DNA from: Deltaproteobacteria bacterium
GTDB taxonomy: Bacteria; Desulfobacterota; Desulfobacteria; Desulfobacterales; ETH-SRB1
Direction: 5' to 3'
DNA length: 45,055 nucleotides
Assembly (NCBI GenBank): GCA_030262775.1
Contig: JAJSZP010000002.1
Span: forward strand, 1-45,055
The translations under genes were made by a program, and so were the position numbers. This document shows positions 1,745-23,274 of this stretch, one piece after another. The notes beneath the pieces were generated by a model. The model was not told where the DNA came from and made no database searches. It saw nothing but the letters and a program-made list of their open reading frames with translations. Each line of letters begins with the position of its first letter. The first letter of the stretch is position 1.

Positions 1745-2779
1745 ATGAATTGGAAATATATACAAAAAGTTTTGATAATTATTCTTTTGATGGGAGCTGT
1801 TTTTCTCGCTGCCACAGGATATTTGGATAAGCCGATAGAAAAAATTGGAATGGGAAAAATTTCCAGTTCTAATGAAGAGTATTTAACAAATTCATTTGAT
1901 AAAGCCGTAACCGGATTTTTAGTTCTATCCGGCATAAAGAGCGGATTAGCTGTCATTGAAGGGTCGGAAGTAGGTATAGGGTTTAACCTTGAAATTGGTG
2001 ATATTGTTCAATCTGTTTATGATTACGTGGATATCGCATGGAAAACCGCTCTTGCCGGCGGTACAGTAATACTCCTGACACGTTTACTATTGCAATCCGT
2101 GGCTTTAATAGACCACTGGTGTCTTTCCATGATGTTTGCGGCTTTATTTGCTTTTTTAATTGTAAGCTGGTTTTTCCCAAAGTATGTCAAAACTTCAAGA
2201 TTGTTAAAGGAAGCGACTTTCTATCTTATAGTTTTTTCTTTTGCTTTGTATATAGTGCTTCCCTTTTCGATTACAGGCGCTGCTTTTTTATCTGAAAAAA
2301 TTACAAAACCGCTTATTCAGGAATCTCATCAAAGTTTTGAAAATATTAAAGAAGACTTTTCTTTGGAATCCATCACAGATAGCTTGTTCCCGGATGAACA
2401 GGAAAAAGATGGTTCCTGGTTTTCCGAGTTGAACATGAAGGCAAAATATGAAAAAACAAAATACCGCCTAGAAGAACTTGCTCAATACTTTAAGGAAAAA
2501 TCAAAAAACATAGCAATCTGGACGATTCAACTTATTGCCGGATACTTATTTGATGCCATAATATTTCCTGTTACATTCTTTATTATACTTTTTGTAATTA
2601 CAAAGAGCATTTTGGTGTATCTTTTTGAAAACAGGAGATATCAATCTTTTAAAGAAGATATAGAATCAATGGTGAAAAAATATTATGGTTCTTCAGAAAA
2701 AACTGTGAGGAAGCCATATCGGCAGTTACCCATAAGACATACACAAAAAACGATTGCCGGAAATAAAAAGATGCTTTAG
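1745..2779 (+). CDS. hypothetical multi-pass membrane protein with a charged, coiled-coil-like central segment
   Basis: 344-aa ORF with several long hydrophobic stretches and a K/E-rich middle and tail. I recognise no family. Confidence 0.55.
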   Translation: MNWKYIQKVLIIILLMGAVFLAATGYLDKPIEKIGMGKISSSNEEYLTNSFDKAVTGFLVLSGIKSGLAVIEGSEVGIGFNLEIGDIVQSVYDYVDIAWKTALAGGTVILLTRLLLQSVALIDHWCLSMMFAALFAFLIVSWFFPKYVKTSRLLKEATFYLIVFSFALYIVLPFSITGAAFLSEKITKPLIQESHQSFENIKEDFSLESITDSLFPDEQEKDGSWFSELNMKAKYEKTKYRLEELAQYFKEKSKNIAIWTIQLIAGYLFDAIIFPVTFFIILFVITKSILVYLFENRRYQSFKEDIESMVKKYYGSSEKTVRKPYRQLPIRHTQKTIAGNKKML

Positions 2780-5224: not shown

Positions 5225-5488
5225 ATGCTTATTGAATACATCAATAAAGCAATGAGTGAAGCAACTTACGATAAGCTGGGAGAAAGTAGTTTTGCCGGTA
5301 AAATTCCACAATGCCCTGGTGTTGTAGCCTTTGGAGAAACGTTGTATAAATGCCAGCAAGAATTGAGATCCTCACTTGAAGGGTGGTTGATCATAAAAAT
5401 CAGGCATGGTGATACTTTGCCGGTAATAGGCAGGATAAATTTAAATAAAAGAATGCCGGCTCCAAAAGAGGCAGTCGCTCATGGGTAA
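5225..5488 (+). CDS. hicB: type II antitoxin, HicB family
   Basis: Strong RBS (GAGGAGGTGATAATATG). YDKLGESSFAGKIPQCPGVVAFGETLYKCQQELRSSLEGWLIIKIRHGDTLPVI matches the HicB/UPF0150 N-domain pattern. It overlaps the next ORF by 8 nt. Confidence 0.75.
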   Translation: MLIEYINKAMSEATYDKLGESSFAGKIPQCPGVVAFGETLYKCQQELRSSLEGWLIIKIRHGDTLPVIGRINLNKRMPAPKEAVAHG

Positions 5489-6043: not shown

Positions 6044-6607
6044 ATGAACCGATTAATTAAGGCATTATCGACGATCACAAGCTGGATGGAGCGGATGAAT
6101 ATTTCCTATATGGTTTTTGGCGGAATAGCCAACAGCGTATATGGAAATCCCAGGCAAACGTTTGATGTGGATATTAAATTTTCATTGGAATCGAAATACA
6201 AAATGGAACAGTTTGTTGAGGACTTAAAATCAATAGCGATACTGCTTTCGGATGAACCAATACAGTTTATAAAGGAAACAAATGTTATTCCGATTGAAAT
6301 AGATGATGTGCGTGTGGATCTGGTAGTTGCGGATCTGCCGTTTGAAATAGATGCCATTTAAAGAAATAGATATGTTGCCTTTTCAAATACAAAGATAAAA
6401 GTCTGTTTACCGGAGGATTTGATCATACAAAAAGCGGTTTCCACAAGGGAAAAGGACTGGCTGGACATCAGGAATGTTATAGAAAACCAGCGCGACAAAA
6501 TGGACTGGAATTATCTGCTAAAACATTGCAAAGACCTTTCTGATTTTTTAAATAACAATCAGATTTATGATAGAATTAAAAAGTGGAAAAATGAAGAATC
6601 CCTATGA
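6044..6607 (+). pseudogene. nucleotidyltransferase-fold protein gene interrupted by one in-frame TAA (6359-6361)
   Basis: ORFs 6044..6361 and 6419..6607 are in the same frame. Reading through the TAA gives continuous sense: ...FEIDAI*RNRYVAFSNTKIKVCLPEDLIIQKAVSTREKDWLDI... The N-terminus has the NTase motif FGGIANSVYGNPRQTFDVDI (G[GS]-x9-13-D-x-D). Confidence 0.6.
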
Positions 6608-6827
6608 AATGATGCATGATAAGATGTCTAAATTTAATGAATGGGAGAGAAATTACATGAAAAATCTTCCTGTTCAAAAACGTCTGGAACAATTCTTAAT
6701 CCTTTACGATCTTAGTCTGGATTCTTCAACGGGAACCGTTGAAAGAGTGCGCAAGGAACATCTGCAAAGCTTGATAGAAACGAAAAAGATATTAAGAAAG
6801 GCGGAAAAAAAAAGAGTAATAAAATGA
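6591..6827 (+). CDS. small helical hypothetical protein overlapping the 3' end of the NTase gene
   Basis: The ATG at 6591 (MKNPYEMMHDK...) overlaps the upstream stop by 17 nt. The protein contains an R-x4-H string (RVRKEH). No family recognised. Confidence 0.35.
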   Translation: MKNPYEMMHDKMSKFNEWERNYMKNLPVQKRLEQFLILYDLSLDSSTGTVERVRKEHLQSLIETKKILRKAEKKRVIK

Positions 6828-6885
6828 TGGCAGTGAAAATCTTTTATGTAAATTTGTGTATGTTCCGAAGACGCCATATTCAAAT

Positions 6886-7011
6886 AGAGTGCCCCTCGGT
6901 CGTAAAGCAAAACCGGAAGAGATCAGCTCAAGTATCATTTATCTTGCATCAGATGCTTCAAGTTATGTTACCGTGCATAATATTATAGATGGAGGGTGGA
7001 CAATTTGGTGA
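6886..7011 (+). pseudogene. 3' remnant of a short-chain dehydrogenase/reductase gene
   Basis: My own translation is RVPLGRKAKPEEISSSIIYLASDASSYVTVHNIIDGGWTIW*. This is the canonical SDR C-terminus (PLGR..PEEIA..FLASD.SSY.TG....DGGW). There is no start codon or N-terminal Rossmann part, and an upstream in-frame stop lies at 6820-6822. Confidence 0.6.
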
Positions 7012-7042: not shown

Positions 7043-7822
7043 ATGCAAACAATAATACTTTGCGGCGGGTTAGGGACTCGTCTTCGGGAAGAAACCGAAT
7101 TTCGTCCTAAACCAATGGTGGAAATAGGCGGTAAGCCTATTCTATGGCATATAATGAAAATATATTCTCATTACGGGATTAAGGACTTTGTTCTTTCCCT
7201 GGGCTACAAAGGTGAAATGATAAAGGAATATTTTTATAATTATGAAATCCTAAGTAATGATTTTACAATAGAGCTCGGAAATAAAAAAAATATTGAAATA
7301 CATAGTAATAATGCCGAAAAAGACTGGCGTATTACTTTGGCTGACACTGGAGATAAAGCGCTTAAAGGCGCCAGGCTGAAGCGTGTACAGCAGTATATCG
7401 ATGATGACACTTTTATGTTGACTTACGGCGATGGGTTTGCTGATGTGGATATTAATGCCCTATTAGCCTTTCATAATAAACACGGAAAGCTTGCAACAGT
7501 AACCGGTATCAACCCTGCTTCCCGCTTTGGCGAGCTGAAAATTAAAGGCAATCAGGTTGAATCTTTCAGTGAGAAGCCAAGGGATGGTGACGGCCTTATT
7601 AATGGCGGATTCTTCATCTTCAACAAGGGTATTTTTGATTATCTTTCAATAGATGAAAATTGTGATCTGGAAATAGGCCCCCTTGAAAAGATTGCAGGCG
7701 AAGGACAGCTAATGGTTTATAAACACAGAGGTTTTTGGGCCTGTATGGACACAATTCGGGATATGGAGTATTTGAATAAATTGTGGGTTGAAGGCAAGGC
7801 TGAATGGAAGGTGTGGGAATAG
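7043..7822 (+). CDS. rfbF: glucose-1-phosphate cytidylyltransferase
   Basis: MQTIILCGGLGTRLREETEFRPKPMVEIGGKPILWHIMKIYSHYGIKDFVLSLGYKG is a near-canonical RfbF/DdhA N-terminus. The length (259 aa) fits. Confidence 0.9.
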   Translation: MQTIILCGGLGTRLREETEFRPKPMVEIGGKPILWHIMKIYSHYGIKDFVLSLGYKGEMIKEYFYNYEILSNDFTIELGNKKNIEIHSNNAEKDWRITLADTGDKALKGARLKRVQQYIDDDTFMLTYGDGFADVDINALLAFHNKHGKLATVTGINPASRFGELKIKGNQVESFSEKPRDGDGLINGGFFIFNKGIFDYLSIDENCDLEIGPLEKIAGEGQLMVYKHRGFWACMDTIRDMEYLNKLWVEGKAEWKVWE

Positions 7823-7843
7823 ATAGCTAAGAGCTAATAAATT

Positions 7844-8932
7844 ATGTTTGGCAACGTGTATAAAGAAAAAAAAGCCCTCATCACAGGCAATACCGGTTTT
7901 AAGGGTTCTTGGCTTGCTCTATGGCTCTTAAATCTGGGGGCCAGAGTTGTGGGCTATTCCTTGGATCTCCCGACGGATCCCAATCATCACGAAATTTTGA
8001 ATCTGGATTTTGAAACAATCTCTGGTGATGTCCGTGATTTAGAAAAACTCCGAAAGGCCATCGAATCTTTTCAACCGGATATTGTCTTCCATATGGCGGC
8101 TCAATCTCTAGTGCTAAAATCCTATAAAAGCCCTGTGGAAACATTTGAAACCAATGTTATTGGAACGGTTAATGTTTTTGAGGCATGTCGACGGGTAGAG
8201 TCGGTAAAGGCTATTGTAAACGTTACAAGCGATAAATGTTACGAAAACAGGGAATGGATTTGGGGATATCGGGAAAATGACCCAATGGGCGGCCATGATC
8301 CTTACAGCGCATCAAAAGGATGTGCAGAATTGGTCACCGCCAGTTATCGGAAATCCTTTTTCCCACTCGAAGAGTATCAGAAAAGCCATCAGACCCTCGT
8401 AGCAAGTGCCAGGGCTGGAAATGTAATTGGTGGTGGTGACTGGGGAGATAATCGGCTTGTTCCTGACATTATGCGGGCCACTAGTCAAAATGAGAGAGTG
8501 CAAATTCGTAATCCGCAGGCAACACGCCCCTGGCAGCATGTTTTGGAACCTTTATCGGGATATTTGCTTCTCGGGCAACAATTGCTCGAAGGTAAAAGTG
8601 GATTTTCTGAAGCGTGGAATTTTGGTCCGAGTTATGAAGGTCATAGAAATGTGCTTGCCGTCGTCAGGGAATTACAAAAACACTGGTCAAACATTGATTG
8701 TGAGATCAAGGCCGATGAAAAAAATCCACACGAAGCCAATTTTTTGAAACTGGATTGCTCAAAGGCGTATGCAAAACTGAAATGGAAATCGGTGTGGGAT
8801 AGTTCCAATACATTCACAAAGACTGCACAATGGTACAAAGAGTATTATGAATCAAACCATGCTCGCAGCGAAGAACAATTGGCAGTATATATAACTGATG
8901 CGAAACATAACCAAATATCATGGGCCGTTTAA
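7844..8932 (+). CDS. rfbG: CDP-glucose 4,6-dehydratase
   Basis: ALITGNTGFKGSWLALWL, SDKCYEN and YSASKGCAELV (the YxxxK catalytic motif) are present. At 362 aa it fits RfbG/DdhB, and it sits directly after rfbF. Confidence 0.9.
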   Translation: MFGNVYKEKKALITGNTGFKGSWLALWLLNLGARVVGYSLDLPTDPNHHEILNLDFETISGDVRDLEKLRKAIESFQPDIVFHMAAQSLVLKSYKSPVETFETNVIGTVNVFEACRRVESVKAIVNVTSDKCYENREWIWGYRENDPMGGHDPYSASKGCAELVTASYRKSFFPLEEYQKSHQTLVASARAGNVIGGGDWGDNRLVPDIMRATSQNERVQIRNPQATRPWQHVLEPLSGYLLLGQQLLEGKSGFSEAWNFGPSYEGHRNVLAVVRELQKHWSNIDCEIKADEKNPHEANFLKLDCSKAYAKLKWKSVWDSSNTFTKTAQWYKEYYESNHARSEEQLAVYITDAKHNQISWAV

Positions 8933-9483
8933 TGAGAATCAATAAACTTCCATTAGAAGGCGGCTTTGTCATTGAACCGGAACCTTTTAAGGATGTCCGC
9001 GGATTATTCGCCCGGGTTTTTTGTGAGCAAGAACTACAACATATTTTGCATAACAAAAATATCGTTCAGGTCAACCACTCTCTTACCAGACAGAAAGGTG
9101 CTATCCGCGGGATGCACTTCCAGAAACCGCCCAAAGCGGAGATCAAAATGGTCAAATGCCTGCGCGGTTCAGTCTCCGATGTTATGATAGATCTGCGAAG
9201 TGATTCTTCAACTTTTCTAAAATGGCATGGAGAAAAGCTCTCTGCTGAAAACATGAAGATGATGTACATCCCTGAAGGGTTTGCGCATGGATTCCAAACA
9301 TTAGAAGAAGATTGTGAACTCCTTTATTTTCATACGGAGTTTTACAGTCCCGAACATGAAGGTGGTGTGCGTTATAACGATCCTATAATCAACATTTTGT
9401 GGCCTTTGGAAGTTACTGAAATATCCGACAAAGATGAAAGATATTCTTTGCTGCCTCAAGATTTCGAAGGGATTCAACTCTAA
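8920..9483 (+). CDS. NDP-4-keto-6-deoxyhexose 3,5-epimerase (RfbC/cupin family)
   Basis: FKDVRGLF, IRGMHFQ, KMVKCLRGSVSDVMIDLR and YIPEGFAHGF match the RmlC family. An alternative start at 8932 would form a TAATG overlap with the rfbG stop. Confidence 0.8.
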   Translation: MGRLMRINKLPLEGGFVIEPEPFKDVRGLFARVFCEQELQHILHNKNIVQVNHSLTRQKGAIRGMHFQKPPKAEIKMVKCLRGSVSDVMIDLRSDSSTFLKWHGEKLSAENMKMMYIPEGFAHGFQTLEEDCELLYFHTEFYSPEHEGGVRYNDPIINILWPLEVTEISDKDERYSLLPQDFEGIQL

Positions 9484-10709
9484 TGAAATGCCGTTTTTGT
9501 CACCATAAATTGACTCACGAATTCATTGATCTGGTAAACGCTCCTCCGTCAAATTCTTTTTTAACAAAGAAACAGTTAAGCGAACCTGAGATTTTTTATC
9601 CTCTGAAACTAATGGTATGTGAAGAATGCTGGCTTGTCCAGGTTGATGAATACAAGAAATCAGAAGAGATCTTTAATCAGAACTACGCATATTTTTCTTC
9701 TTACTCCACCTCCTGGTTGGAGCACGCTAAACGATACGTTGAAATGATTATTGGTCGTTTTGGGTTCAATGAAAAATCTCATGTGATCGAAATCGCATCA
9801 AACGATGGTTATCTGCTGCAATATTTTCAATTAAAGCATATCCCTGTTCTTGGTATCGAACCCGCCACGAATGTAGCCATGTCGGCACAGGAAAAAGGTA
9901 TTGAAACGATTGAAGCCTTTTTCGGGGCAAATTTGGCCAACCGACTTGTCTCACAGGATAAAATGGCGGATCTAATCATAGGAAACAACGTATTTGCGCA
10001 TGTGCCTGATGTAAATGATTTTGCAGCAGGACTGAAGATTGCACTTAAAGACAACGGCGTTATTACATTAGAATTCCCTCATCTTATGCAGCTTATTGAA
10101 CAAAATCTATTTGATACCATCTATCACGAGCATTTCTCATATTTTTCATTTTCCATTGCAAAACTTATTTTCGAGAAACATGGCCTTGAATTATTTGACG
10201 TCGAACAAATATCTACGCATGGCGGCTCATTGCGCATATATGGCAAACATAAAGATGATGCTTCAAAGAATATTTCCCCAAAGGTTACGGCACTTCTTCA
10301 TGAAGAAAAAGTAAAAGGAATGCAGACAACCGAATATTATGACGGATTCCAGAATAAAGCAGATAGAGTGAAGTACGATTTGATTGATTTTCTTATAAAA
10401 CAGAAAAAAAACGGTAAAAAAGTAGCGGCTTATGGAGCGGCGGCAAAGGGCAACACTCTGCTTAATTACTGCGGTTCGAAAAAAGATTTGATTGAATTTG
10501 TAGTTGATGCTTCTCCTCATAAACAGGGCATGTTTTTGCCCGGCAGTCACATACCCGTTGTTACGGAAAAAGAAATCAAAAAAACAAAGCCGGATTTTGT
10601 GATTATTTTGCCGTGGAATATTAAAAATGAGATAATTGAGCAGTTAAGTTATATTCAGGAATGGGGAGGAAAATTTGTTGTGCCGATTCCTGAAATCAGA
10701 ACATTTTGA
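9483..10709 (+). CDS. NDP-hexose C-methyltransferase (TylC3/TcaB9-like; Zn-ribbon + class I SAM MTase + C-MT C-terminal domain)
   Basis: The N-terminus has CRFCHH...CEEC. Also present are VIEIASNDGYLL, FDTIYHEHFSYFS, and the C-terminal AAYGAAAKGNTLLNY...DASPHKQGMFLPGSHIPV. Its start forms a TAATG overlap with the upstream stop. Confidence 0.85.
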   Translation: MKCRFCHHKLTHEFIDLVNAPPSNSFLTKKQLSEPEIFYPLKLMVCEECWLVQVDEYKKSEEIFNQNYAYFSSYSTSWLEHAKRYVEMIIGRFGFNEKSHVIEIASNDGYLLQYFQLKHIPVLGIEPATNVAMSAQEKGIETIEAFFGANLANRLVSQDKMADLIIGNNVFAHVPDVNDFAAGLKIALKDNGVITLEFPHLMQLIEQNLFDTIYHEHFSYFSFSIAKLIFEKHGLELFDVEQISTHGGSLRIYGKHKDDASKNISPKVTALLHEEKVKGMQTTEYYDGFQNKADRVKYDLIDFLIKQKKNGKKVAAYGAAAKGNTLLNYCGSKKDLIEFVVDASPHKQGMFLPGSHIPVVTEKEIKKTKPDFVIILPWNIKNEIIEQLSYIQEWGGKFVVPIPEIRTF

Positions 10710-10726
10710 TCAATGAAAGCGATGAT

Positions 10727-11578
10727 ATGAAAATATTAGTCACCGGTGCAACAGGGTTTATTGGAAATTATGTTGTCGAAGAATTGCTAAAATATGGACA
10801 TAAAATAATAACGACTTCAATCGAATATAAAAATCAGATACAATTTAGTTGGATAGAAAAAGTAGATTATATTCAAGCTGATTTAAACAGAGATAAGGAG
10901 AATTGGTTTGTCTTTTTTAATGAACCCGACCAAATAATCCACCTTGCCTGGGAAGGATTACCTAATTATAATGAACTGTTTCACATCGAACGAAACCTGC
11001 CACGAAACTGTTGTTTCTTAAATAAAATAATTGAAAAAGGATTGAAAAAGGTTGTTGTTATTGGAACCTGCTTTGAATATGGGATGCAAAGTGGAGCCCT
11101 ACAAGAAGATATGAAAACAATGCCTGAAAATCCTTATGCCATAGCAAAGGATACCTTTCGAAAGTTTTTGGAACAACTGCAAAAAAAGAATGATTTTGAC
11201 TTCAAATGGATTCGCCTGTTTTACATGCATGGAAAAGGACAGAGTCCCAATTCAATCCTTTCGCAATTGGACAGGGCGTTGGAAAATAGAGAAACCACCT
11301 TTAAAATGTCGGGAGGTGAGCAATTACGAGATTACCTGCCTGTTGAAAAGGTTGCTGAATATATCGTTAAGATTGCAATGCAAAATAAAGTGCGTGGAAT
11401 TATTAACTGCAGCAGCGGCAAGCCCATTTCTATCAGGAAGTTTGTGGAAAATTACCTGGAGAAGAAACAAAAAAGTATTCACTTGAATTTAGGATATTAT
11501 CCATATCCTGATTATGAACCGATGGCTTTTTGGGGTGATAATAAAAAATTGAAGATGGCTTTGGGAGATAGTGCATGA
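10727..11578 (+). CDS. NAD(P)-dependent SDR, probable NDP-sugar 4-ketoreductase
   Basis: MKILVTGATGFIGNY (Rossmann) and YAIAKDTFRKF (YxxxK). The ORF track begins at TTG 10706; I prefer the ATG at 10727. Confidence 0.75.
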   Translation: MKILVTGATGFIGNYVVEELLKYGHKIITTSIEYKNQIQFSWIEKVDYIQADLNRDKENWFVFFNEPDQIIHLAWEGLPNYNELFHIERNLPRNCCFLNKIIEKGLKKVVVIGTCFEYGMQSGALQEDMKTMPENPYAIAKDTFRKFLEQLQKKNDFDFKWIRLFYMHGKGQSPNSILSQLDRALENRETTFKMSGGEQLRDYLPVEKVAEYIVKIAMQNKVRGIINCSSGKPISIRKFVENYLEKKQKSIHLNLGYYPYPDYEPMAFWGDNKKLKMALGDSA

Positions 11579-12672
11579 AATGCAGTTTGTGCCAAAACGA
11601 TAATCTTTCGACATTATATACGGTGCCAAATGTTCCGGTTTTCCAGAATAAGACGTATGCGACTGTGAGCGAGGCGAAAAACATAATGACTGGAAATGTG
11701 GAATTAGTCATGTGCTCAAACTGCGGTTTTATATTCAATGCAGATTTTAACAGGAAGGTTATGAGTTATGATGCTCAGTACCAAAACGAACAGGCACATT
11801 CGCATTACTTTCAGAGATATCTTAGGGAGCTTATTGAGCTGTTTGCAGAAAAAAGATTTCACGGGATGAAGATTATCGAAATTGGATGCGGCAAAGGGTA
11901 TTTTTTGGAAATGCTTCGGGAAAAAGATTTTGATGTCATCGGTTTTGATCCTGCATACGAGGGGGACAGCCCGAATATAGTAAGGGATTACTACTCAGAT
12001 CAATATTCACATTTGAACGCCGATTTAATTGTTTTGCGCCATACCCTGGAACATATTGATGACCCTCTGAAATTTTTGCGCGGAATAGCGCGTGCTGTCA
12101 ACTACAACGCCAAGATATTTATTGAGGTTCCCAGTTTTGAATGGATACTTGAGAAAAGAGCTTTTTGGGATGTTTTCTATGAACACTGCAACTATTTCAC
12201 CCTTGAGAGCCTGGCCAGTCTTTTTCAAGAATCAGAGCAAGGTTTGTTGTTCAACAACCAGTATATGTATTTACTATCTGATTTAAGTAACTTGTTTGAA
12301 CAGGCTGTATCTGCAAAGGAGACGCTCCATAAATTTAAAATTTCTAAGATGGATGAATTGCTGCTATTTTACAGGAAGTTCGTTCAAAGTCATCCAGGGA
12401 TGTTGGTGTGGGGCGCTGGCGCAAAAGGTGCAACCTTTGTGAGACTGACCGATCCTAATAGAGAATATATTTCTGCCGTTGTTGATATTAATCCTAAAAA
12501 GCAGGGACGGTTTGTTGCTAAAACCGGTCATAGTATCATAAGCCCTGAACAACTAACTGATTTTGCCGAAGAGAGGGGCATACTCGTGATGAATGATAAT
12601 TACTATAAAGAAATACAGGAACAGATAAAAGGAAAACATTTTAACCTTTATAGCCTTGGAGCAATTCAATGA
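11575..12672 (+). CDS. second, diverged Zn-ribbon SAM-dependent (C-)methyltransferase paralog
   Basis: CSLCQ...CSNCG ribbon, IIEIGCGKGYFL (SAM motif I), and FWDVFYEHCNYFT (parallels FDTIYHEHFSYFS). The C-terminal WGAGAKGATFV...DINPKKQGRFVAKTGHSI parallels the C-terminal domain of 9483..10709. ATGA overlaps occur at both ends. Confidence 0.75.
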   Translation: MKCSLCQNDNLSTLYTVPNVPVFQNKTYATVSEAKNIMTGNVELVMCSNCGFIFNADFNRKVMSYDAQYQNEQAHSHYFQRYLRELIELFAEKRFHGMKIIEIGCGKGYFLEMLREKDFDVIGFDPAYEGDSPNIVRDYYSDQYSHLNADLIVLRHTLEHIDDPLKFLRGIARAVNYNAKIFIEVPSFEWILEKRAFWDVFYEHCNYFTLESLASLFQESEQGLLFNNQYMYLLSDLSNLFEQAVSAKETLHKFKISKMDELLLFYRKFVQSHPGMLVWGAGAKGATFVRLTDPNREYISAVVDINPKKQGRFVAKTGHSIISPEQLTDFAEERGILVMNDNYYKEIQEQIKGKHFNLYSLGAIQ

Positions 12673-13403
12673 ATCCAATTGAACGATTTAGGAAAGAGTG
12701 CCTTGAGCGTACAAAGTTAAACAGAAAGAATGACAAGCTCGTAAATGCGGCAAGAGCCTTTATGAAGGAATCCACTTTGCCACAATACTCCTATAACTTT
12801 ACATGGCTTGGCCGCCCAATTATTCAATATCCTCAGGACATCATTGCCATGCAGGAGATTATCTGGCATGTAAAGCCTGATCTGATTATTGAAACCGGTA
12901 TCGCCCACGGTGGGTCCCTTATTTTTTTTGCCTCCATACTGGAACTTTTAGGCGGTGACGAACAGGTTTTGGGGATAGATATTGATATTCGTGAGCACAA
13001 TAGGATGGAGATTGAAAAACATCCCATGTTCAAACGAATTACAATGATTGAGGGCTCGTCTATTGATGAAGAGATCGCCAAACAGGTTCATGATTTTACG
13101 AAGGATAAAAAACAGATTATGGTCGTCCTTGATTCCATGCACACCCACGACCATGTGCTAAAGGAGCTGGAGCTTTATTCTCCCCTGGTAACAAAAGGAA
13201 GTTACTGTGTGGTCTTCGATACTGTAATAGATGACATGCCCGACGAGATGTTCCCCGACCGCCCCTGGGATAAAGGCAATAATCCTAAAACCGCGGTATG
13301 GGAGTTTCTGAAAACCAATGACCGATTTGTTGTGGACAATGAAATCGAAAACAAACTCCTCATCACCGTTGCACCTGATGGTTATTTGAAATGTGTGAAG
13401 TAA
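12669..13403 (+). CDS. CmcI / cephalosporin-hydroxylase-family SAM-dependent methyltransferase (sugar O-methyltransferase type)
   Basis: FTWLGRPIIQYPQDIIAMQEIIWHVKPDLIIETGIAHGGSLIFFASILELLG is the characteristic CmcI-family core. Rhamnosyl O-methyltransferases belong to this family. Confidence 0.8.
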   Translation: MNPIERFRKECLERTKLNRKNDKLVNAARAFMKESTLPQYSYNFTWLGRPIIQYPQDIIAMQEIIWHVKPDLIIETGIAHGGSLIFFASILELLGGDEQVLGIDIDIREHNRMEIEKHPMFKRITMIEGSSIDEEIAKQVHDFTKDKKQIMVVLDSMHTHDHVLKELELYSPLVTKGSYCVVFDTVIDDMPDEMFPDRPWDKGNNPKTAVWEFLKTNDRFVVDNEIENKLLITVAPDGYLKCVK

Positions 13404-13425: not shown

Positions 13426-14943
13426 GTGTCAGTAATAAGACAAAATATTATCGCCAATTTTGCCGGGAATACCTGGCAGGCCCTCATGGGTCTGGCGTTT
13501 ATACCCCTGTATATCAAATTCATGGGGGTTGAATCCTATGGGTTAATCGGTATTTTTGCTACGCTCCAGGCGATGTTTGTCATTTTGGATATGGGCATAA
13601 CTGCTACACTGAGCCGTGAAATGGCGCGGCTCTCCGTGCTGCCGGGCAGGGAGCAGGAAATGCGCAATCTGGTCCGATCCCTGGAAATTATTTACTGGTG
13701 TGTAGCCATATTCATCGGAATGGCCGTCATGGCAATATCGCCTTTCATTGCGCATAACTGGGTTAAGGCAAGCCAGTTATCTCCCCAAACAATTGAACAG
13801 GCGTTTCTAATCATGGGATTCGCAGTGGCGCTCCAATGGCCGGCCTCTTTTTACTCCGGTGGGCTGATTGGTCTTCAGAGGCAGGTCCTGTTAAATCTAA
13901 TCAATATCGGCGTGAGCACTATGCGCGGCGTGGGCGCTGTTTTGATCCTGTGGTTGATCTATCCAACAATTCAAGCCTTCTTTTCATGGCAAATCATTAT
14001 CAGTATCATAAACACCTGCCTCTTGGCTTTCTTTTTCTGGCACAGACTTCCGCGTACCGAAAAAAGGGCATCTTTTCAAAAACAGCTCCTTGCAGGGGTT
14101 TGGCGATTTGCTGTCGGGATTAGTGGGATCACTTTCCTCTCGGTGATTCTGATGCAAATGGATAAGATTATTTTAAGCAAGATGCTTTCTCTTGAAATGT
14201 TTGGCTATTACACACTGGCCAGTACAGTAGCAATAAGTCTTTATCGTCTTATCAACCCTGTTAATGCCGCAATTTTTCCAAGAATCACTCAATTTGTTTC
14301 ACTCGTTGACCAGGATGGATTGAAACAACTCTATCATAAAAGTTGTCAGTTTATGTCAGTCCTGATCTTGCCCGTTACCGTTGTTGTCGCTATGTTTTCT
14401 TATGAAATTCTGCTTATCTGGACGCAAAACCCGGTAACGGCTGAAAAGTCTCACCTCTTGGTGAGCATTCTAATTTGCGGTACAGCCCTTAACGGACTGA
14501 TGAATATTCCATACGGACTGCAACTAGCACATGGATGGACAAGGCTGACTTTATATGTCAATTTGATTTCTGTGATTCTGCTCATGCCGCTGATTATTTT
14601 CATGACCAATCATTATGGGGCTATAGGCGCCGCAAGCGTATGGGTGATACTGAATGTAGGTTACGTCTTGATTGCTATTCATTTCATACATAGACGTTTA
14701 CTACCGTCTGAAAAATGGCGTTGGTATTGGCAGGATGTAAGCTTGCCGCTTGTGGCCGCGTTTCTGACGGCAGGTGCAGGCAGAATATTGTTTTGCTATG
14801 TTCCTTTTACACAGCCAATGATGCTTTTATCAATATTTATTGTTTCGTGCTTCACGCTGGCGATAACGGCGTTGGCTGCTCCGCTTATGAGGTCATGGGT
14901 TTTTGCTCAATTGATCAGACTGAAAATATCTTACGGAAATTGA
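13426..14943 (+). CDS. wzx: Wzx-type oligosaccharide flippase (MOP superfamily)
   Basis: 505 aa with roughly 12-14 hydrophobic helices. The N-terminus NIIANFAGNTWQALMGLAFIPLYIKFMGVESYGLIGIF is typical of the Polysacc_synt family. The start is GTG. Confidence 0.8.
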   Translation: MSVIRQNIIANFAGNTWQALMGLAFIPLYIKFMGVESYGLIGIFATLQAMFVILDMGITATLSREMARLSVLPGREQEMRNLVRSLEIIYWCVAIFIGMAVMAISPFIAHNWVKASQLSPQTIEQAFLIMGFAVALQWPASFYSGGLIGLQRQVLLNLINIGVSTMRGVGAVLILWLIYPTIQAFFSWQIIISIINTCLLAFFFWHRLPRTEKRASFQKQLLAGVWRFAVGISGITFLSVILMQMDKIILSKMLSLEMFGYYTLASTVAISLYRLINPVNAAIFPRITQFVSLVDQDGLKQLYHKSCQFMSVLILPVTVVVAMFSYEILLIWTQNPVTAEKSHLLVSILICGTALNGLMNIPYGLQLAHGWTRLTLYVNLISVILLMPLIIFMTNHYGAIGAASVWVILNVGYVLIAIHFIHRRLLPSEKWRWYWQDVSLPLVAAFLTAGAGRILFCYVPFTQPMMLLSIFIVSCFTLAITALAAPLMRSWVFAQLIRLKISYGN

Positions 14944-14996: not shown

Positions 14997-16166
14997 ATGA
15001 AAAGTCCATTTTTCTCTATTTTTCTTCCCGCAAAAGGCAGGTTGGAATACTTGGCTGAGGCTATCGAGAGCGTTCTGCTTCAAGATTTCCAGAATATAGA
15101 GCTTGTAGTTTCGAATAACGGTGCAGATGCTGCTTTACGCGATGTTGTAGAGAAGTATCGGAGCAATGCCGAGGTCAGGTATGTCGAACAACCAGAAGTG
15201 CTTAACATGCCGACACATTGGGAGAAAGTAACGCAAGAGCTGGTTGGTGAATATATTCTGATTCTGACTGATCGGTCTGTACTCAAAGCAGGGGCACTGC
15301 ATTATCTGCATAGACAGATAACGAAGGAAGATGAACGACCTAATGTTATTTCATGGCCATGGGATCTATATTACGACCATTTAAAAATTTTACTGCCCTA
15401 TCAAGCCACTGAGAAAAAGATGCAGGTGTTAAGTTCTGAGTCCCAACTAATGAATGCTGCAAACGGTATTAGTCAATTTCCATATGCATTGCCTCGCGGA
15501 CTCAATTCATGCGTGCGTAACGATTTTATCAATCATATGCGTGTGAAACACGGGGCAATATTTCGTCCTCTCACTCCTGATTTTTCATTCGGGTATTTGT
15601 GTTTGCTGAACACAAGCAAATTTTTTTACATTGAGCGCCCTTTGTTCGTGTCTCAAGGATTGATGGTTAGCAATGGAGGTAATTCCTTTGGTGGGGATGC
15701 TTCCCCATACTTCAATTCCCTAAATCTTAAGAATCCGTTCCAGCATGTACCATTAAAATTGCCGCTAGTACAGAATGGAATACATGAAGATTTTTTAGCG
15801 ATGGCCTCTTTGTGCGGGCGTGATGACCTGTTGAAAGTTTGGAATAGACAGAACTATTATTTGGAATGCTTTGCCGAAATCGATGCGAAGAGAGAAACTG
15901 GAATTTTGAGAAATGATTGGATTGATGAAATGGAACGCGCGCTTGTTCAGACCTTAATGAAAGAAAGCCATGAGATACAACAAGGCGTTAAGTACACTAG
16001 AACAACGATAACAAAAATCCGCACTCGAATTATCGGGCTAATAAAAAAAATACTTGGCGCAAGACTTGAAACTATCCGGCGGTATGTGTTGCTCGGGAAA
16101 AGGGGTGGGGTTACTTGCCAGACTGCACTAGAAGCAGCGGGGTTAGATGCTCTGAAAATAAAATGA
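14997..16166 (+). CDS. glycosyltransferase family 2 (with long C-terminal extension)
   Basis: FSIFLPAKGRLEYLAEAIESVLLQDFQNIELVVSNNG...ILTDRS is the GT-A N-terminal pattern. Confidence 0.75.
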   Translation: MKSPFFSIFLPAKGRLEYLAEAIESVLLQDFQNIELVVSNNGADAALRDVVEKYRSNAEVRYVEQPEVLNMPTHWEKVTQELVGEYILILTDRSVLKAGALHYLHRQITKEDERPNVISWPWDLYYDHLKILLPYQATEKKMQVLSSESQLMNAANGISQFPYALPRGLNSCVRNDFINHMRVKHGAIFRPLTPDFSFGYLCLLNTSKFFYIERPLFVSQGLMVSNGGNSFGGDASPYFNSLNLKNPFQHVPLKLPLVQNGIHEDFLAMASLCGRDDLLKVWNRQNYYLECFAEIDAKRETGILRNDWIDEMERALVQTLMKESHEIQQGVKYTRTTITKIRTRIIGLIKKILGARLETIRRYVLLGKRGGVTCQTALEAAGLDALKIK

Positions 16167-17308
16167 AGATTGCTTACGTAGATTATTATCAGAGCGGACA
16201 TTCTCCTCACAAGGATCCACTGACTATCCCAGTTGCGCTACAGCAGATCGGTTACGAGGTTGTGCTGATATCATGCAATCCGGCATTCGATGGCATCAAG
16301 CAATTAAACGGACTTCCTGTGCTTTCCCTGGAAATGGTGGAGGAAGATGGGTGGAGTTCCCTTGGCTTTACCGGTGTGGTGTTTGCCTCGCGCTTGGATG
16401 TGAGATTTACTCCAGCGGTACGTAGAATACGTGAGAGTGGTTTGCGTTTAGTCATTAAGGCTGATACTGACGGCACATGGGGTCATCCTATACCACCTAA
16501 TTACTTGCGTGCGCGGCCATTGGCGGAGGGTCCAATCAACTGGTTGAGGCATCTTAAATGGCGGCTACCAATAAAATACTGGGTAGAAAAAAAGTTGGAG
16601 CAAGTAAGATTGGCGGATGCTGTCATAGTAGAAAGCCCTGCTGCTGCAGTGAACGCTACGTCTATTCTATTGCATTGGGGTCTGGGTAGTCTTGCGCAGA
16701 AGATCCGTTTTATCCCGAATCCTGTTTCACCTGTTGCGCTGTCTTTGCCATTGAGAGAGCAACGCTGCGATCGCATCGTTACTGTTGGGCGCTGGGAAGA
16801 TCGGGAGGTGAAAAATACCAAAACAATGTTGTGCGTTGTTAGCCAGTTTCTTAATGTGAATAAGAAATTTGACTTTGAAATTATTGGCACTGGTCTGGAT
16901 GCCGATGAAGTTTCTGAATACCTATGGGAGTATATTGATTCAGGAAGGGTAAAAATAATCTCCGAGTTACCATATCTGAAGCTGCAAGAACGGCTCGGGC
17001 AGGCCAAAATCACGCTGATCCCGTCCACATTAGAGAGCTTTTGCTTTGTTGCAGCGGAGGCGCTATGTGCTGGGTCATCTATAGTTGCTACGCCGATTGA
17101 ATCTCTGATCTATCTGACCGGAGGAGGATGTTGGGGGTCAATTGCTCGCGGTTTTGGAGAGGAGCAGATTCTTGCGGCGTTGATATGTGAGGTCGAAGCA
17201 TGGGAACGAGGTTTAAAAGATAGTGATGGATTGTCTTGCTTTTCCCGTAAAAGATTTGATCCACATGACATAGCCCATCAATTTGCAAATTTGTTCGGAA
17301 AGGAATAG
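16163..17308 (+). CDS. glycosyltransferase, GT-B fold (GT4-like)
   Basis: I chose the start at ATG 16163 (MKIAYVDYYQ), which forms an ATGA overlap with the upstream stop; the track start at 16115 lies inside the previous gene. The C-terminus has PSTLESFCFVAAEALCAGSSIVATP, an E-x7-E motif. Confidence 0.75.
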   Translation: MKIAYVDYYQSGHSPHKDPLTIPVALQQIGYEVVLISCNPAFDGIKQLNGLPVLSLEMVEEDGWSSLGFTGVVFASRLDVRFTPAVRRIRESGLRLVIKADTDGTWGHPIPPNYLRARPLAEGPINWLRHLKWRLPIKYWVEKKLEQVRLADAVIVESPAAAVNATSILLHWGLGSLAQKIRFIPNPVSPVALSLPLREQRCDRIVTVGRWEDREVKNTKTMLCVVSQFLNVNKKFDFEIIGTGLDADEVSEYLWEYIDSGRVKIISELPYLKLQERLGQAKITLIPSTLESFCFVAAEALCAGSSIVATPIESLIYLTGGGCWGSIARGFGEEQILAALICEVEAWERGLKDSDGLSCFSRKRFDPHDIAHQFANLFGKE

Positions 17309-17388
17309 AAACGAGGTCTCCCAGGGATGAGCTTCAGGGACAAGTACTATTGGGGTAAGAAGGATTTATTGAGAAATGCAAAGATGTT

Positions 17389-18378
17389 TTGTCGGCCAAA
17401 GAAAAACATAAGGAGATACCAAGATCACAAATGCAAGTAGTCTCCATAATCGGTGCAAGCAGTTTCATCGGAACACATTTATTGGAGCGCCTGTCGCTGT
17501 GCAGTGATCTGCACCTCAGGTTGCTGGTTAACAGAAATCCGAATTTAATTTTGCAGGAATCGGATAAAGTCTCTATAATTCGAGGTAATCTTCTTGATAC
17601 CAAGACGTTGAACGGCCTTGTTAAAACAGGTTGTATTGTAATCAACTTGGCTTATCTCAGTGGACGTCGCCCTGAGGAAAATTTCGCAGCAATAAATAAC
17701 CTCGTGGAAGTTTGTTCAAGAGCAAAGATAAGACGCCTGATCCATTGCAGTACTGCAGTAGTTTCGGGGAGGGTTTCTGCTGACAGAGTTACGGAAAATA
17801 CTCCAAACAAACCAGTAAAGGAATATGAAGTCACAAAGCAAAGAATAGAAAAAATCATTCTGGAAAAATCTAATGGATTGTTTGAAACAATTATTTTGCG
17901 ACCAACGGCTGTTTTCGGTAAAGGCGGCAGTAATCTGATTAAGCTTGCGGATGATCTGCTGTGTGAAAATAGATTGGTAAATTATATTAAATCATGTATT
18001 TACCAGTTTCGCAGAATAAATCTCGTCTATATAGATAATGTTGTAGCAGCAATTGAATTTTTCATAAAAACAGATCGGACTATAATTGGTGAAACCTTCA
18101 TTATTTCTGATGACGAGGATCCTTCCAACAACTATCGCTATATTGAAAAGTATCTGATGAAGAGAATGGGTTGCAAGCCATATCCTGTTCCACCTGTTTC
18201 AGTGCCCTTCCTGATTTTGAAATCCCTGCTCTGGCTCTCAGGGAGAACCAATGACAATCCGGCGCTTGTTTATGATTGCGGGAAAATCCTTTCCTCGGGT
18301 TTTAAGAAACCTGTCAGTTTTGAAGAGGGATTATCACATTTTTCCGATTGGTATATAAAGACTCATTTACAAAGTTAA
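17389..18378 (+). CDS. NAD-dependent epimerase/dehydratase-family SDR
   Basis: VVSIIGASSFIGTHLLERL (Rossmann) and YEVTKQRIEK (YxxxK). An alternative start exists at ATG 17431 (MQVVSIIG). Confidence 0.75.
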   Translation: MSAKEKHKEIPRSQMQVVSIIGASSFIGTHLLERLSLCSDLHLRLLVNRNPNLILQESDKVSIIRGNLLDTKTLNGLVKTGCIVINLAYLSGRRPEENFAAINNLVEVCSRAKIRRLIHCSTAVVSGRVSADRVTENTPNKPVKEYEVTKQRIEKIILEKSNGLFETIILRPTAVFGKGGSNLIKLADDLLCENRLVNYIKSCIYQFRRINLVYIDNVVAAIEFFIKTDRTIIGETFIISDDEDPSNNYRYIEKYLMKRMGCKPYPVPPVSVPFLILKSLLWLSGRTNDNPALVYDCGKILSSGFKKPVSFEEGLSHFSDWYIKTHLQS

Positions 18379-18387
18379 GCAACATGT

Positions 18388-18919
18388 ATGAAAATTCTCA
18401 ATGTCAATTCAATATGAGCATTGATCCTGTTACCGGAGGCGGAACGGCAGAACAAACATTGCAGATGAGCATTCATCTCGCAAAAAAAGTAGTGAAAAGC
18501 TCTATTTTAACCACGGACACCGGACTTAACCCGGAATATAAAGAGGATATGGAAAGAAAAGGAGTCAACATATATGCATCGCGTACATTAAGCAGGCGAT
18601 TCCACCTGCCTATATGTTCATTCAATACAATAAATAAACTTATACAACAAACAGATATAATACATTTAATGAATAATTGGACGATTTTGCATGTATCTGG
18701 TCGCTTTATAATGCAATTCAAAACCGAAAACCTGTTGATTCCGTCCAACCCGTAAAACACCTGCCGATATTTATACCTTATATCCTGCGACAACTATTTC
18801 GCGGGCACAGCAATAAAGGAGATATTAAATATTCCTCAAAGAAGTTACTTTCTGAAGGATTCAAATTTACGCTCGGTCTTGAGGGTGCAATTAAGAGAGT
18901 AATCAACGCTGAGCGTTAA
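18388..18919 (+). pseudogene. mosaic relic: frameshifted N-terminal third of a GT4 glycosyltransferase fused to the C-terminal about 60 codons of an SDR epimerase
   Basis: MKILNVNSI* (from 18388), then in another frame MSIDPVTGGGTAEQTLQMSIHLAKK...DIIHLMNNW, parallels the N-terminus of 18928..20058 (MRVLNVNIMINSRQGGGAAERTVQTSRFLAKS...DVIHLMGHW). Codons at 18740-18919 (VKHLPIFIPYILRQLFRG...KKLLSEGFKFTLGLEGAIKRVI) parallel the C-terminus of 17389..18378 (VSVPFLILKSLLWLSGR...GKILSSGFKKPVSFEEGLSHF). Confidence 0.6.
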
Positions 18920-18927
18920 ACCAAACT

Positions 18928-20058
18928 ATGCGAGTATTAAATGTAAATATTATGATCAACTCTCGTCAGGGAGGAGGAGCTGCTGAAAGAACAGTGCAAA
19001 CAAGTCGATTTCTGGCTAAATCTGGAGTTGATTGCACAATTCTTACAATGGATTTAGGTTTAACCCAGGAATGTCTCAAGGTTCTAAATGGGGTTAAGGT
19101 CACAACATTAACTTGTTTATTTAAAAGGTTTTACTTGCCTAAATTTTCTTACAGTAAAATTAAGAACATTGTGGCAGAGTCTGATGTTATTCATCTAATG
19201 GGTCATTGGGCTTTTTTAAACGCAATGGTTTATCTAATTGTCAGACTCCTTAATAAACCTTACGTTGTATGTCCTGCCGGTATGCTTCCTGTATATGGTA
19301 GATCGAAGATGATTAAAAAGCTATATAATTCACTAATTGGTAATAGTATTATCCGCAATGCCAATGGTTATATTGCTATATCTTTAAATGAAATTGATCA
19401 ATTTTTAGAATATGGAATTGAAAAGGAAAAAGTGAGCATTATTCCAAATGGAATAGATCCTGAAGACTATAAAATAAAAAATTCTATTAACTTTAAAAAA
19501 AAATACGGTTTGGGTGATGATCCTTTTTTATTGTTTATGGGAAGATTGAATCCGATTAAAGGGCCTGATTTGCTTTTAAATGCCTTTTGCAACGTAAAAG
19601 GCAAGTTAAACAATTATAACCTGGTATTTGCCGGTCCGGACGAAGGTATGCTTCCTGTTTTAAAAAAAATAGCAATTAATTCGGGAATCGAAGATAGAAT
19701 TTATTTTACAGGGTACCTTGAAGGAGAGGAAAAATCGAGTGCATATCATGCAGCGAATTTACTTGCTATCCCATCCAGACAAGAAGCTATGTCGATTGTT
19801 GTACTCGAAGCCGGAATAACTAAAACACCAGTATTGATTACAGATCAATGCGGGTTTGATGAAGTGGCTGATATAAATGGTGGAAGAGTTGTTTCAGCTT
19901 CTGTGGATGGATTACAAAACGGATTAATCGAAATCCTCAAAGATTCTGATGAATTGTCATTAATGGGAGCAAATCTTCAAAAGTATACCAGAAGACACTT
20001 CATCTGGGATGCCGTAATTAATAAATATATAAAATTATATCAGAATATATTAGAATGA
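18928..20058 (+). CDS. glycosyltransferase family 4 (GT-B)
   Basis: FLLFMGRLNPIKGPDLLL, LVFAGPDEG, and PSRQEAMSIVVLEAGITKTPVLITD (E-x7-E). Confidence 0.85.
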   Translation: MRVLNVNIMINSRQGGGAAERTVQTSRFLAKSGVDCTILTMDLGLTQECLKVLNGVKVTTLTCLFKRFYLPKFSYSKIKNIVAESDVIHLMGHWAFLNAMVYLIVRLLNKPYVVCPAGMLPVYGRSKMIKKLYNSLIGNSIIRNANGYIAISLNEIDQFLEYGIEKEKVSIIPNGIDPEDYKIKNSINFKKKYGLGDDPFLLFMGRLNPIKGPDLLLNAFCNVKGKLNNYNLVFAGPDEGMLPVLKKIAINSGIEDRIYFTGYLEGEEKSSAYHAANLLAIPSRQEAMSIVVLEAGITKTPVLITDQCGFDEVADINGGRVVSASVDGLQNGLIEILKDSDELSLMGANLQKYTRRHFIWDAVINKYIKLYQNILE

Positions 20059-20105
20059 ATTAAACAACTTCTGAAAACTTTTGTGAATTTAATGGGATAG
20101 GATGT

Positions 20106-20651: not shown

Positions 20652-20706
20652 AATTAATACTTTAAATATTATGCGTTAAATAATCGATTTATTAATGACT
20701 CATTGA

Positions 20707-21456: not shown

Positions 21457-21545
21457 AAAGATTGTCATATTCGGACACCATGGCTTATGCAGAGTAATAT
21501 ATTTTTGTATATTTCATAATAAACTGTGTCCTTTTAACTTTTAAT

Positions 21546-22499: not shown

Positions 22500-22524
22500 C
22501 CTGATAAGCTGTTGAGATATTAGA

Positions 22525-23085: not shown

Positions 23086-23256
23086 TGGCGTCGTCAAAAG
23101 TCTCATCTACTGCGTTGTAGCGGTTTTTCAGGAACTCGACATACTATAAGTATAGTCTCGTCTCTGAAAAACCACTACGCCTTGCACCCCAAGGGCACTT
23201 CCTGCGGGGCGTATATGAGCCTTTTTACTTAGCCATCCGGCGCTTATTCAAAGACT
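23084..23256 (+). repeat. dispersed repeat family B, full copy (core hairpin module + distal module)
   Basis: It starts within the TGA stop (TGATGGCGTCGT). The core GGTTTTTCAG (23122-23131) pairs with CTGAAAAACC (23164-23173). Positions 23084-23176 align with the reverse complement of 38205-38301, and 23161-23256 align with the reverse complement of 44975-45035. Confidence 0.75.
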
Positions 23257-23274
23257 TTATCGTATCTATTCAGA

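Follow-up and report, generated by a model that had tools for sequence, protein, structure and literature searches.

In a 45,055-nucleotide stretch of contig JAJSZP010000002.1 (assembly GCA_030262775.1, Deltaproteobacteria bacterium; this whole stretch is called the window here) the ORF listing shows seven co-directional and tightly packed open reading frames (ORFs) at positions 7043 to 13403 of the plus strand. Their order is rfbF, rfbG, a gene for an RmlC-type epimerase, a gene for a zinc (Zn)-ribbon methyltransferase (MT1), a gene for an extended short-chain dehydrogenase/reductase (SDR), a gene for a second Zn-ribbon methyltransferase (MT2) and a gene for a CmcI-family methyltransferase. 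We see an even chance that these seven genes supply the nucleotide sugar within a surface-polysaccharide locus and that they make cytidine diphosphate (CDP)-6-deoxy-3-C-methyl-di-O-methyl-L-hexose. The related sugar CDP-vinelose of Azotobacter vinelandii, 6-deoxy-3-C-methyl-2-O-methyl-L-talose, is known chemically. An earlier prediction for this DNA (the original prediction) had proposed a vinelose-like 6-deoxy-3-C-methyl-O-methyl-L-hexose as the product. The pathway logic of that proposal holds and it is still the best reading, but the operon has three methyltransferases for the two added methyls of vinelose, so that the product should be one methyl heavier. On this reading it would correspond to vinelose plus one O-methyl group and would lie partway to the methylation pattern of nogalose, whereby the configuration at C4 and the positions of the O-methyl groups are not readable from the sequence.

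The enzymes of the cassette

The glucose-1-phosphate cytidylyltransferase RfbF (DdhA; 7043-7822, plus strand) scores 361.5 bits over its full length with the equivalog model TIGR02623 (cutoff 300.25) and also matches PF00483, and the CDP-glucose 4,6-dehydratase RfbG (7844-8932, plus strand) reaches 502 bits with the equivalog TIGR02622 (cutoff 278.45) besides its matches to PF16363 and PF01370. As both proteins are above the equivalog cutoffs, the proposed formation of CDP-4-keto-6-deoxyglucose by rfbF and rfbG is supported. Pfam scans found no DegT/RfbH-like or RfbI-like protein among the window ORFs of at least 120 amino acids (aa). With RfbH (E1) and RfbI (E3) absent from the window C3 should not be deoxygenated, in line with the earlier statement that this is not a classical 3,6-dideoxyhexose route.

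The third gene codes for an RmlC-type 4-keto-6-deoxyhexose 3,5-epimerase (8932-9483, plus strand, alternative start 8920; PF00908 with 3e-61, TIGR01221 with 171.5 bits versus 155.75). Its start is probably the ATG at 8932, giving 183 aa, as called on a near-identical metagenome contig. In the comparison with Salmonella RmlC (1dzr, 3e-41) His63, Lys73, Tyr133 and Asp170 are all aligned to identical residues. Judging from the context, the substrate of the epimerase would be a CDP-sugar. The extended SDR (10706-11578, plus strand; PF01370 with 5e-30) can start with TTG at 10706 or with ATG at 10727, and the latter may be the true start. In a PDB search its residues 7-287 match the GDP-6-deoxy-D-lyxo-4-hexulose reductase 2pk3 (8e-13), and its sequence contains the motifs GATGFIG and YAIAK. 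We infer that the SDR is an NAD(P)H-dependent 4-ketoreductase; it is the sole candidate in the cassette for the 4-ketoreduction. The last gene (12669-13403, plus strand) codes for an enzyme of the CmcI/rhamnosyl O-methyltransferase family, which matches PF04989 with 1.4e-99 (332.4 bits, cutoff 23.2) and the CmcI structure 2bm8 with 5e-10, and which with 106 bits stays below the cutoff of 400 of the rhamnosyl O-methyltransferase equivalog NF045824. By homology this protein is presumably a sugar O-methyltransferase and the best candidate for an O-methylation.

These matches to Pfam, NCBIfam and the PDB, among them PF04989 and RmlC (PF00908), together with the ORF listing agree with the original prediction in all seven ORFs, their coordinates and their families. 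The tight coupling of the genes was also found as described: the sequence itself shows the start-stop overlaps, TAATG at position 9483 and ATGA at the positions 11575 and 12669.

The two Zn-ribbon methyltransferases

By its matches to PF08421 (1.1e-24), PF13489 (4e-11) and PF08484 (1.7e-66), MT1 (9483-10709, plus strand) belongs to the Zn-ribbon NDP-hexose C-methyltransferases typified by TylC3, TcaB9, MtmC and KijD1. It has a three-domain architecture with an N-terminal Zn ribbon of four cysteines, a class I S-adenosylmethionine (SAM) domain and the C-terminal PF08484 domain, and is matched over its full length by MtmC (4rv9, 5e-80), KijD1 (5t64, 8e-63) and TcaB9 (3ndi, 5e-58) of the PDB with 31-37% identity. 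The residues Y68, H173, Y214, E216 and H217 of MT1 correspond to Tyr76, His181, Tyr222, Glu224 and His225 of TcaB9, the five catalytic positions probed by mutation (the names of the mutants were taken from PDB titles), and are invariant in 37 MT1-class sequences. MT1 belongs to the TylC3/TcaB9 family by each sequence-based measure of membership, and it would act as a 3-C-methyltransferase on a CDP-sugar. Its relatives are numerous, with more than 8,000 at E<=1e-30 in a database clustered at 90%, many of them at least 70% identical.

MT2 (11575-12672, plus strand) is the second Zn-ribbon methyltransferase with the TcaB9 fold and matches PF13489 with 1.5e-28 and PF08484 with 4e-9 (36.9 bits, cutoff 23.5). 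It carries the motifs CxxC...CxxC, FYEH and WGAGAKG...PKKQG, the first of which is found in 106 of the 113 full-length members of the MT2 family. The claim that MT2 shares the Zn ribbon, the YEH motif and the AGAKG...KKQG motif with MT1 is thus correct at the level of the motifs, but the Zn-ribbon model PF08421 of Pfam gives no match to MT2 at E<=0.01. When the MT2 family is aligned to the MT1 family with hhalign, the two match with a probability of 99.5 and 22% identity over residues 1-353, Zn ribbon included. The pairwise identity of MT2 is 18% to MT1 and about 16-18% to the solved enzymes MtmC, KijD1 and TcaB9. An AlphaFold model of MT2, for which 59 relatives were used, reaches a mean pLDDT (predicted local distance difference test) of 92.7, and a Foldseek comparison of this model with the PDB returned as full-length matches only MtmC, TcaB9 and KijD1 (template modelling (TM) scores of 0.77-0.82 over about 410 columns). 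The remaining methyltransferases of the PDB match the model in the Rossmann core alone, with a TM score of about 0.3. Four of the five catalytic residues of TcaB9 are present in MT2 (Y69, H160, E203 and H204); the position of Tyr222 is taken by Phe201, and phenylalanine stands here in 42 of 49 MT2-class sequences.

A phylogeny of both methyltransferases had been put forward with the original prediction as a check, and its outcome differs between MT1 and MT2. A neighbour-joining tree was made of 89 sequences, with MtmC, KijD1 and TcaB9 as the only characterised reference enzymes; in it MT1 groups with these three solved C3-methyltransferases. The MT2 clade is split from MT1, MtmC, KijD1 and TcaB9 in 200 of 200 bootstraps, and MT2 falls outside the clade of these characterised C-methyltransferases. 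By these comparisons MT2 represents a deep separate clade and is not a recent paralog of MT1. The original prediction had called MT2 a diverged C-methyltransferase paralog, and homology to MT1 does extend over the full length, but with 18% identity and a deep clade of its own the statement that the operon has two C-methyltransferases went too far. MT2 is built on a TcaB9-like scaffold and should not be filed as a C-methyltransferase. Its relatives number 3,274 at E<=1e-5, and a profile made of them collects 2,094 clusters (50% identity, E<=1e-30). The identical MT2 protein is found within the same gene order on four independent metagenome contigs.

Distribution and variants of the cassette

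A single scan of genome contigs, seeded with peptide patterns of MT2 and finding pattern matches only, yielded 54 loci. In 24 of them a homologue of each of the seven genes is found no further than 9 kb from MT2, and several further loci are cut by contig ends. Among the carriers are Tepidanaerobacter, Bacteroidota, Thiobacillus, Rhodobacterales, Hyphomicrobiales, many Sinorhizobium/Ensifer strains, Chromatiales, OM182, Verrucomicrobiota, Vulcanimicrobiota, a Methanomassiliicoccales archaeon and a plasmid of Desulfolutivibrio sulfodismutans, so that the phyla span Thermodesulfobacteriota, Bacillota, Bacteroidota, Verrucomicrobiota, several classes of Pseudomonadota and one archaeon. The closest genome locus, in a metagenome-assembled genome (MAG) of Zixibacteria, shows 69-83% identity per protein. 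Carriers available in culture include Ensifer/Sinorhizobium species (within L015-L025), Allgaiera indica DSM 24802 (L013) and D. sulfodismutans DSM 3696 (plasmid p1, L056). The full cassette in 24 of 54 loci across phyla indicates that two Zn-ribbon methyltransferases per operon are a conserved design, and the earlier notion that such a pair is unusual has to be given up. In the records of the Sinorhizobium meliloti pSymB, Bacillus cereus, Brachyspira and Desulfolutivibrio plasmids the genes bear generic names, e.g. "class I SAM-dependent methyltransferase".

The variants of the cassette are informative with regard to MT2. Compact RfbF-RfbG-epimerase-SDR-MT2(-CmcI) cassettes with MT2 and without MT1 are present in the loci L012, L021, L051 and L052, of which L021 belongs to Paracoccus nototheniae. 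In Blastomonas natatoria DSM 3183 (L018) neither CmcI nor RfbG was detected in the vicinity of MT2. MT1 without MT2 is found in a Brachyspira plasmid locus (L058) and, within the 15-kb stretch examined, in a B. cereus plasmid locus (L057). The most stable block consists of SDR, MT2 and CmcI: MT2 and the CmcI gene are adjacent in almost every locus, and the genes RfbF-RfbG-(epimerase)-MT1 lie apart from this block or on the opposite strand in L004, L008 and L027. One locus (L026) holds MT1, two copies of MT2 and CmcI.

Fusions of neighbouring genes recur as well. The best 150 representatives of the MT2 clusters comprise seven SDR::MT2 fusions and two MT2::MT2 tandems. The fusion proteins within the cassette family are P0361, P0364, P0388, P0396, P0411, P0454, P0466, P0502 and P0218, the last being a fusion of MT2 with CmcI, and in-frame fusion ORFs join SDR with MT2 in L008 (9086-11044) and MT2 with MT1 in L033 (10118-12427). 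Some of the fusions could be assembly frameshifts at the ATGA overlaps, but since such fusions turn up repeatedly in separate 50% clusters, most of them are probably real. An apparent epimerase::SDR fusion in L021 was rejected: its two parts are matched by tblastn in different reading frames, and high GC content makes the long ORF an artefact.

Some loci differ in other respects. The Brachyspira locus (B. hyodysenteriae plasmid pBHZ526, 6530-10215) has rfbF, a radical SAM protein in place of rfbG, an RmlC-like epimerase and an MT1 homologue of 58% identity. MT1 homologues of about 52% identity occur on plasmids of the B. cereus group, and around the one in L057 no four-gene operon is visible in a gene table that is incomplete. 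An isolated MT2 homologue (L003) has a restriction-modification system upstream and a GT2 glycosyltransferase downstream, followed by the contig end, and its context is uninformative. On pSymB of S. meliloti 1021 (683867-708961, L055) an MT1-like and an MT2-like gene are adjacent (10594-11925 and 11947-13146 of this stretch), and a second MT2-like gene (17265-18563) lies about 4 kb away on the opposite strand. Homologues of RfbF, RfbG, the epimerase, the SDR and CmcI were not detected in these 25 kb. The pSymB region is distinct from SMb21416-18 of the same species, which appear in the gene table of PMC4053727 as ddhA-ddhB-C-methyltransferase genes. SMb21416-18 were also the sole mention in our literature searches on C-methyltransferase with CDP-glucose, on branched-chain sugars and on cephalosporin hydroxylase with O-antigen, which gave no functional study; a biochemical or genetic study of the seven-gene cassette was not found in the literature.

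Proposed pathway and the role of MT2

The start-stop overlaps, the 24 of 54 loci that hold all seven genes inside 9 kb, and the in-frame fusions SDR::MT2, MT2::CmcI and MT2::MT1 argue for one functional unit. Given their equivalog-level homology, RfbF would form CDP-D-glucose and RfbG would convert it to CDP-4-keto-6-deoxy-D-glucose. From this 4-keto sugar the Glu-His dyad of MT1 would then generate an enolate at C3, to which a methyl group from SAM would be added to give the 3-C-methyl branch. The RmlC-type epimerase would invert C5, and in addition C3 if it acts before MT1, leading to the L-series. The SDR would reduce the 4-ketone, two more SAM-dependent methylations would follow, an O-methylation by the CmcI-family enzyme and the reaction of MT2, and the downstream glycosyltransferases would finally install the sugar. 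That a surface glycan should contain a branched 6-deoxyhexose is plausible, as 3-C-methylrhamnose is documented as a rare O-antigen constituent of Burkholderia andropogonis (PMC7203242).

For the atom that MT2 methylates two main possibilities were considered. That MT2 is a late O-methyltransferase which evolved on the scaffold of a C-methyltransferase seems to us about as probable as all other possibilities taken together, and we rank it ahead of a methylation at C5. Unlikely, yet to be taken seriously, is that MT2 is a second C-methyltransferase which acts at C5, the other alpha-carbon of the 4-keto intermediate, so that a 3,5-di-C-methyl, O-methylated 6-deoxyhexose would result. C5-methylation as such is the reaction of NovU in noviose biosynthesis. 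The two possibilities differ first in what they make of the epimerase. Were both C3 and C5 methylated, the stereochemical mark of the epimerase would be erased and the conserved RmlC-type enzyme would have no lasting effect, yet the epimerase is kept in the cassettes that combine MT1 and MT2 and have close MT2 orthologues. They differ further in the number of methyl groups that the sugar can accept: in L026 and in the MT2::MT2 tandems the Zn-ribbon methyltransferases outnumber the enolisable carbons, and the two MT2 copies and CmcI of L026 make three late methyltransferases, matching three free hydroxyls. The gene order points in the same direction, since the most stable block joins MT2 to the SDR and CmcI and not to RfbG and MT1, and so does the occurrence of MT2 in four loci that are without MT1. 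Also the phenylalanine which replaces the equivalent of Tyr222 across the MT2 clade speaks for oxygen and against C5 as the target, and in the tree, from which NovU was left out, MT2 lies outside the clade of the characterised enzymes. Finally the cassette occurs in cultured rhizobia, yet we know of no report of a 3,5-di-C-methyl sugar.

For C5 speaks that MT2 has the fold of TcaB9 and MtmC (TM score about 0.8) and resembles no other structure over its full length, and that its clade keeps four of the five catalytic residues with hardly any variation. In addition MT2 always stands in pathways that also have a 4,6-dehydratase and a ketoreductase, the latter in some cases fused to it, and the cassettes with epimerase, MT2, SDR and O-methyltransferase but without MT1 mirror the gene logic of noviose with NovW, NovU, NovS and NovP.

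Several of these points weigh at the same time against a late O-methylation by MT2 and against the di-O-methyl product. To our knowledge all characterised enzymes of this three-domain fold are C-methyltransferases, and the equivalents of Tyr76, His181, Glu224 and His225 are nearly invariant in the MT2 clade, as the formation of an enolate would need. The SDR::MT2 fusions fit a C-methylation with immediate ketoreduction equally well. The argument from the epimerase fails if this enzyme merely presents the right epimer to a methyltransferase. Furthermore, the CmcI-family enzymes may act after glycosyl transfer and not on the CDP-sugar, and the CDP specificity of the epimerase, MT1, the SDR, MT2 and CmcI is deduced from the context alone. 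It is conceivable, though doubtful, that the MT2 clade with its about 2,000 clusters at 50% identity is a new class of nucleotide-sugar methyltransferases for a second carbon methylation, at C5 or elsewhere. If this were true, many environmental bacteria, rhizobia and an archaeon would bear on their surfaces a doubly C-branched, O-methylated 6-deoxyhexose which has not yet been described in nature.

We consider it improbable that the product is vinelose itself and that MT2 or CmcI acts elsewhere, e.g. on another residue or on the terminus of the glycan chain. All steps to vinelose have an enzyme in the inventory (CDP activation, epimerisation to the L-series, C3-methylation, reduction and O-methylation), and CmcI-family rhamnosyl O-methyltransferases, after whose activity PF04989 is named, act on glycolipid-bound sugar, Rv2959c being an example. 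Against vinelose, the adjacency of MT2 and CmcI, the fusion P0218 and the MT2-SDR fusions tie both enzymes to the nucleotide-sugar module. A link to Azotobacter was not seen either, the window being from an uncultured organism of the Desulfobacterales type; no Azotobacter locus is among the 54 of the MT2-seeded scan, which matches few peptide patterns so that absence is not implied. A full-text literature search for "vinelose" returned no papers and hence no gene assignment for comparison, nor do we know of one. Just as improbable is that MT1 and MT2 work on two branches which share CDP-4-keto-6-deoxyglucose, with the operon supplying two different methylated 6-deoxy-sugars: MT2 alone in L012, L021, L051 and L052, MT1 alone in the Brachyspira and Bacillus plasmid loci and the known cases of one reductase leading to two products, such as CDP-cereose/cillose and the two HS:41 sugars, would agree with it, but the cassette has a single epimerase and a single reductase, MT2 and MT1 are fused in frame in L033 and the seven-gene block is conserved as one unit across phyla.

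Genomic surroundings

The co-directional operon runs beyond 13403 into wzx and glycosyltransferase genes. A Wzx-type flippase of the MOP superfamily (13426-14943, plus strand; PF01943, PF13440, PF01554 and NF007773 with 3.6e-15) begins 22 nt 3′ of the cassette, and this neighbourhood assigns the sugar to a Wzx-dependent glycan of the cell surface. According to Pfam scans the rest of the co-directional glycan locus (14997-25170, plus strand) contains a GT2 and two GT4-type glycosyltransferases, a hexapeptide acyltransferase, another GT2 and two more SDRs. Within it the initiating sugar transferase of the Bac_transf family (22525-23085, plus strand) and a PglF-like dehydratase (23275-25170, plus strand) were identified. 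The same scans show a phosphomannose isomerase upstream of the glycan locus and a phosphoglucomutase/phosphomannomutase (PGM/PMM) downstream, and the housekeeping genes xseA, ispA, dxs, tlyA and the gene of EF-G come after the locus. The EF-G of the window is 88-90% identical to proteins of Thermodesulfobacteriota/Desulfobacterales MAGs, and the GC content of the window is about 39%. The locus is a Wzx-dependent O-antigen or exopolysaccharide locus.

An obvious Wzy polymerase was not found among the window ORFs of at least 120 aa. The ORF at the end of the glycan locus (25179-26423, plus strand, 414 aa) has as its sole match a faint left-handed beta-helix (PF25084, 1.2e-3); with one hydrophobic segment in a crude hydropathy scan it was ruled out as a Wzy-type polymerase. 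Beside the phosphomannose isomerase gene there is an ORF for a membrane protein of 344 aa (1745-2779, plus strand) which has no Pfam family and, by the same crude scan, about six hydrophobic segments. A scan for promoters and terminators stayed at chance level (32 sites versus 28.8 expected and 8 versus 9.1, respectively).

Directly 5′ of rfbF the frame from 6763 encodes at 6823-7011 (plus strand) the C-terminal about 60 residues of a classical short-chain dehydrogenase, the N-terminal part of which is missing. This truncated gene looks like a remnant that marks the 5′ limit of the glycan locus. The interval from the upstream genes to rfbF also holds the small ORFs 5225-5488, 6044-6361 and 6567-6827 (all plus strand), of which one is UPF0150/HicB-like (PF21748, 3e-26), one faintly nucleotidyltransferase-like and one, of 86 aa, without a family. 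Lying at the margin of the locus, they may be toxin-antitoxin genes or debris of mobile elements.

Significance

With this cassette a known type of pathway has a variant that is widespread and as yet uncharacterised. Surface glycans become hydrophobic and antigenically distinctive through branched-chain and O-methylated deoxysugars, and the enzymes which make these sugars also serve glycodiversification. The main interest lies in the MT2 clade and in the cassette as a whole, both of which are approachable in cultured carriers. Characterising the cassette would show what a large, unannotated clade of methyltransferases with the TcaB9 fold does, and MT2 would turn out to be either the first O-methyltransferase on the TcaB9 scaffold or a C-methyltransferase of new regiochemistry. 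Such work would also provide a concrete candidate gene set for CDP-sugars of the vinelose type.

Comparison with known systems

Among the closest parallels is the CDP-cereose/CDP-cillose pathway of B. cereus. In strain ATCC 14579 it reportedly comprises the four genes Cyt-Deh-Cmt-Red (said to have been described by Li and colleagues in 2017, J Biol Chem 292:7636). The B. cereus system is reported to have in common with the cassette the CDP activation, the RfbF/RfbG-type steps, a TylC3/TcaB9-type C-methyltransferase working on a CDP-4-keto-6-deoxy intermediate and a subsequent 4-reductase. In contrast to the cassette, the B. cereus operon is reportedly without an epimerase, which leads to a D-series product, and without MT2 and a CmcI-type O-methyltransferase. 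The window goes beyond a four-gene set of Cyt, Deh, Cmt and Red by the epimerase with its intact catalytic residues, by MT2 and by CmcI. The original prediction had considered C-methylation of a CDP-activated sugar as unusual; this view is contradicted by PMC7725333, which, where it cites Li et al. 2017, ranks the CDP-cereose/CDP-cillose pathway of B. cereus among the experimentally characterised ones.

Other systems share parts of the pathway. With MtmC, KijD1 and TcaB9, MT1 shares the three-domain architecture and all five catalytic residues, whereas MT2 has the fold alone in common with them. These enzymes act on dTDP (thymidine diphosphate)-2,6-dideoxy or 3-amino substrates in antibiotic pathways of actinomycetes, while the cassette stands in a surface-glycan context and would work on CDP-sugars. 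The classical CDP-3,6-dideoxyhexose pathways leading to abequose, paratose, tyvelose and ascarylose have the RfbF and RfbG steps in common with the cassette but differ by RfbH/RfbI, which are missing from the window. To vinelose the likeness is one of sugar class only, both sugars being CDP-activated, of the L-series, 3-C-methyl-branched and O-methylated; besides the additional methyltransferase the organisms differ, Azotobacter being unrelated.

The steps without methylation have their counterpart in Campylobacter jejuni HS:41, where the action of a 3,5-epimerase on CDP-4-keto-6-deoxy-D-glucose, followed by that of an NADPH-dependent C4-reductase, was shown experimentally (PMC12369002). The CDP-6-deoxy-L-altrose/CDP-D-fucose pathway of this serotype (HS41.21 to HS41.17) resembles the cassette in having a cytidylyltransferase, a CDP-glucose 4,6-dehydratase, a 3,5-epimerase and a C4-reductase. 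It differs in having no methyltransferases and in ending with a pyranose-furanose mutase, which is absent here.

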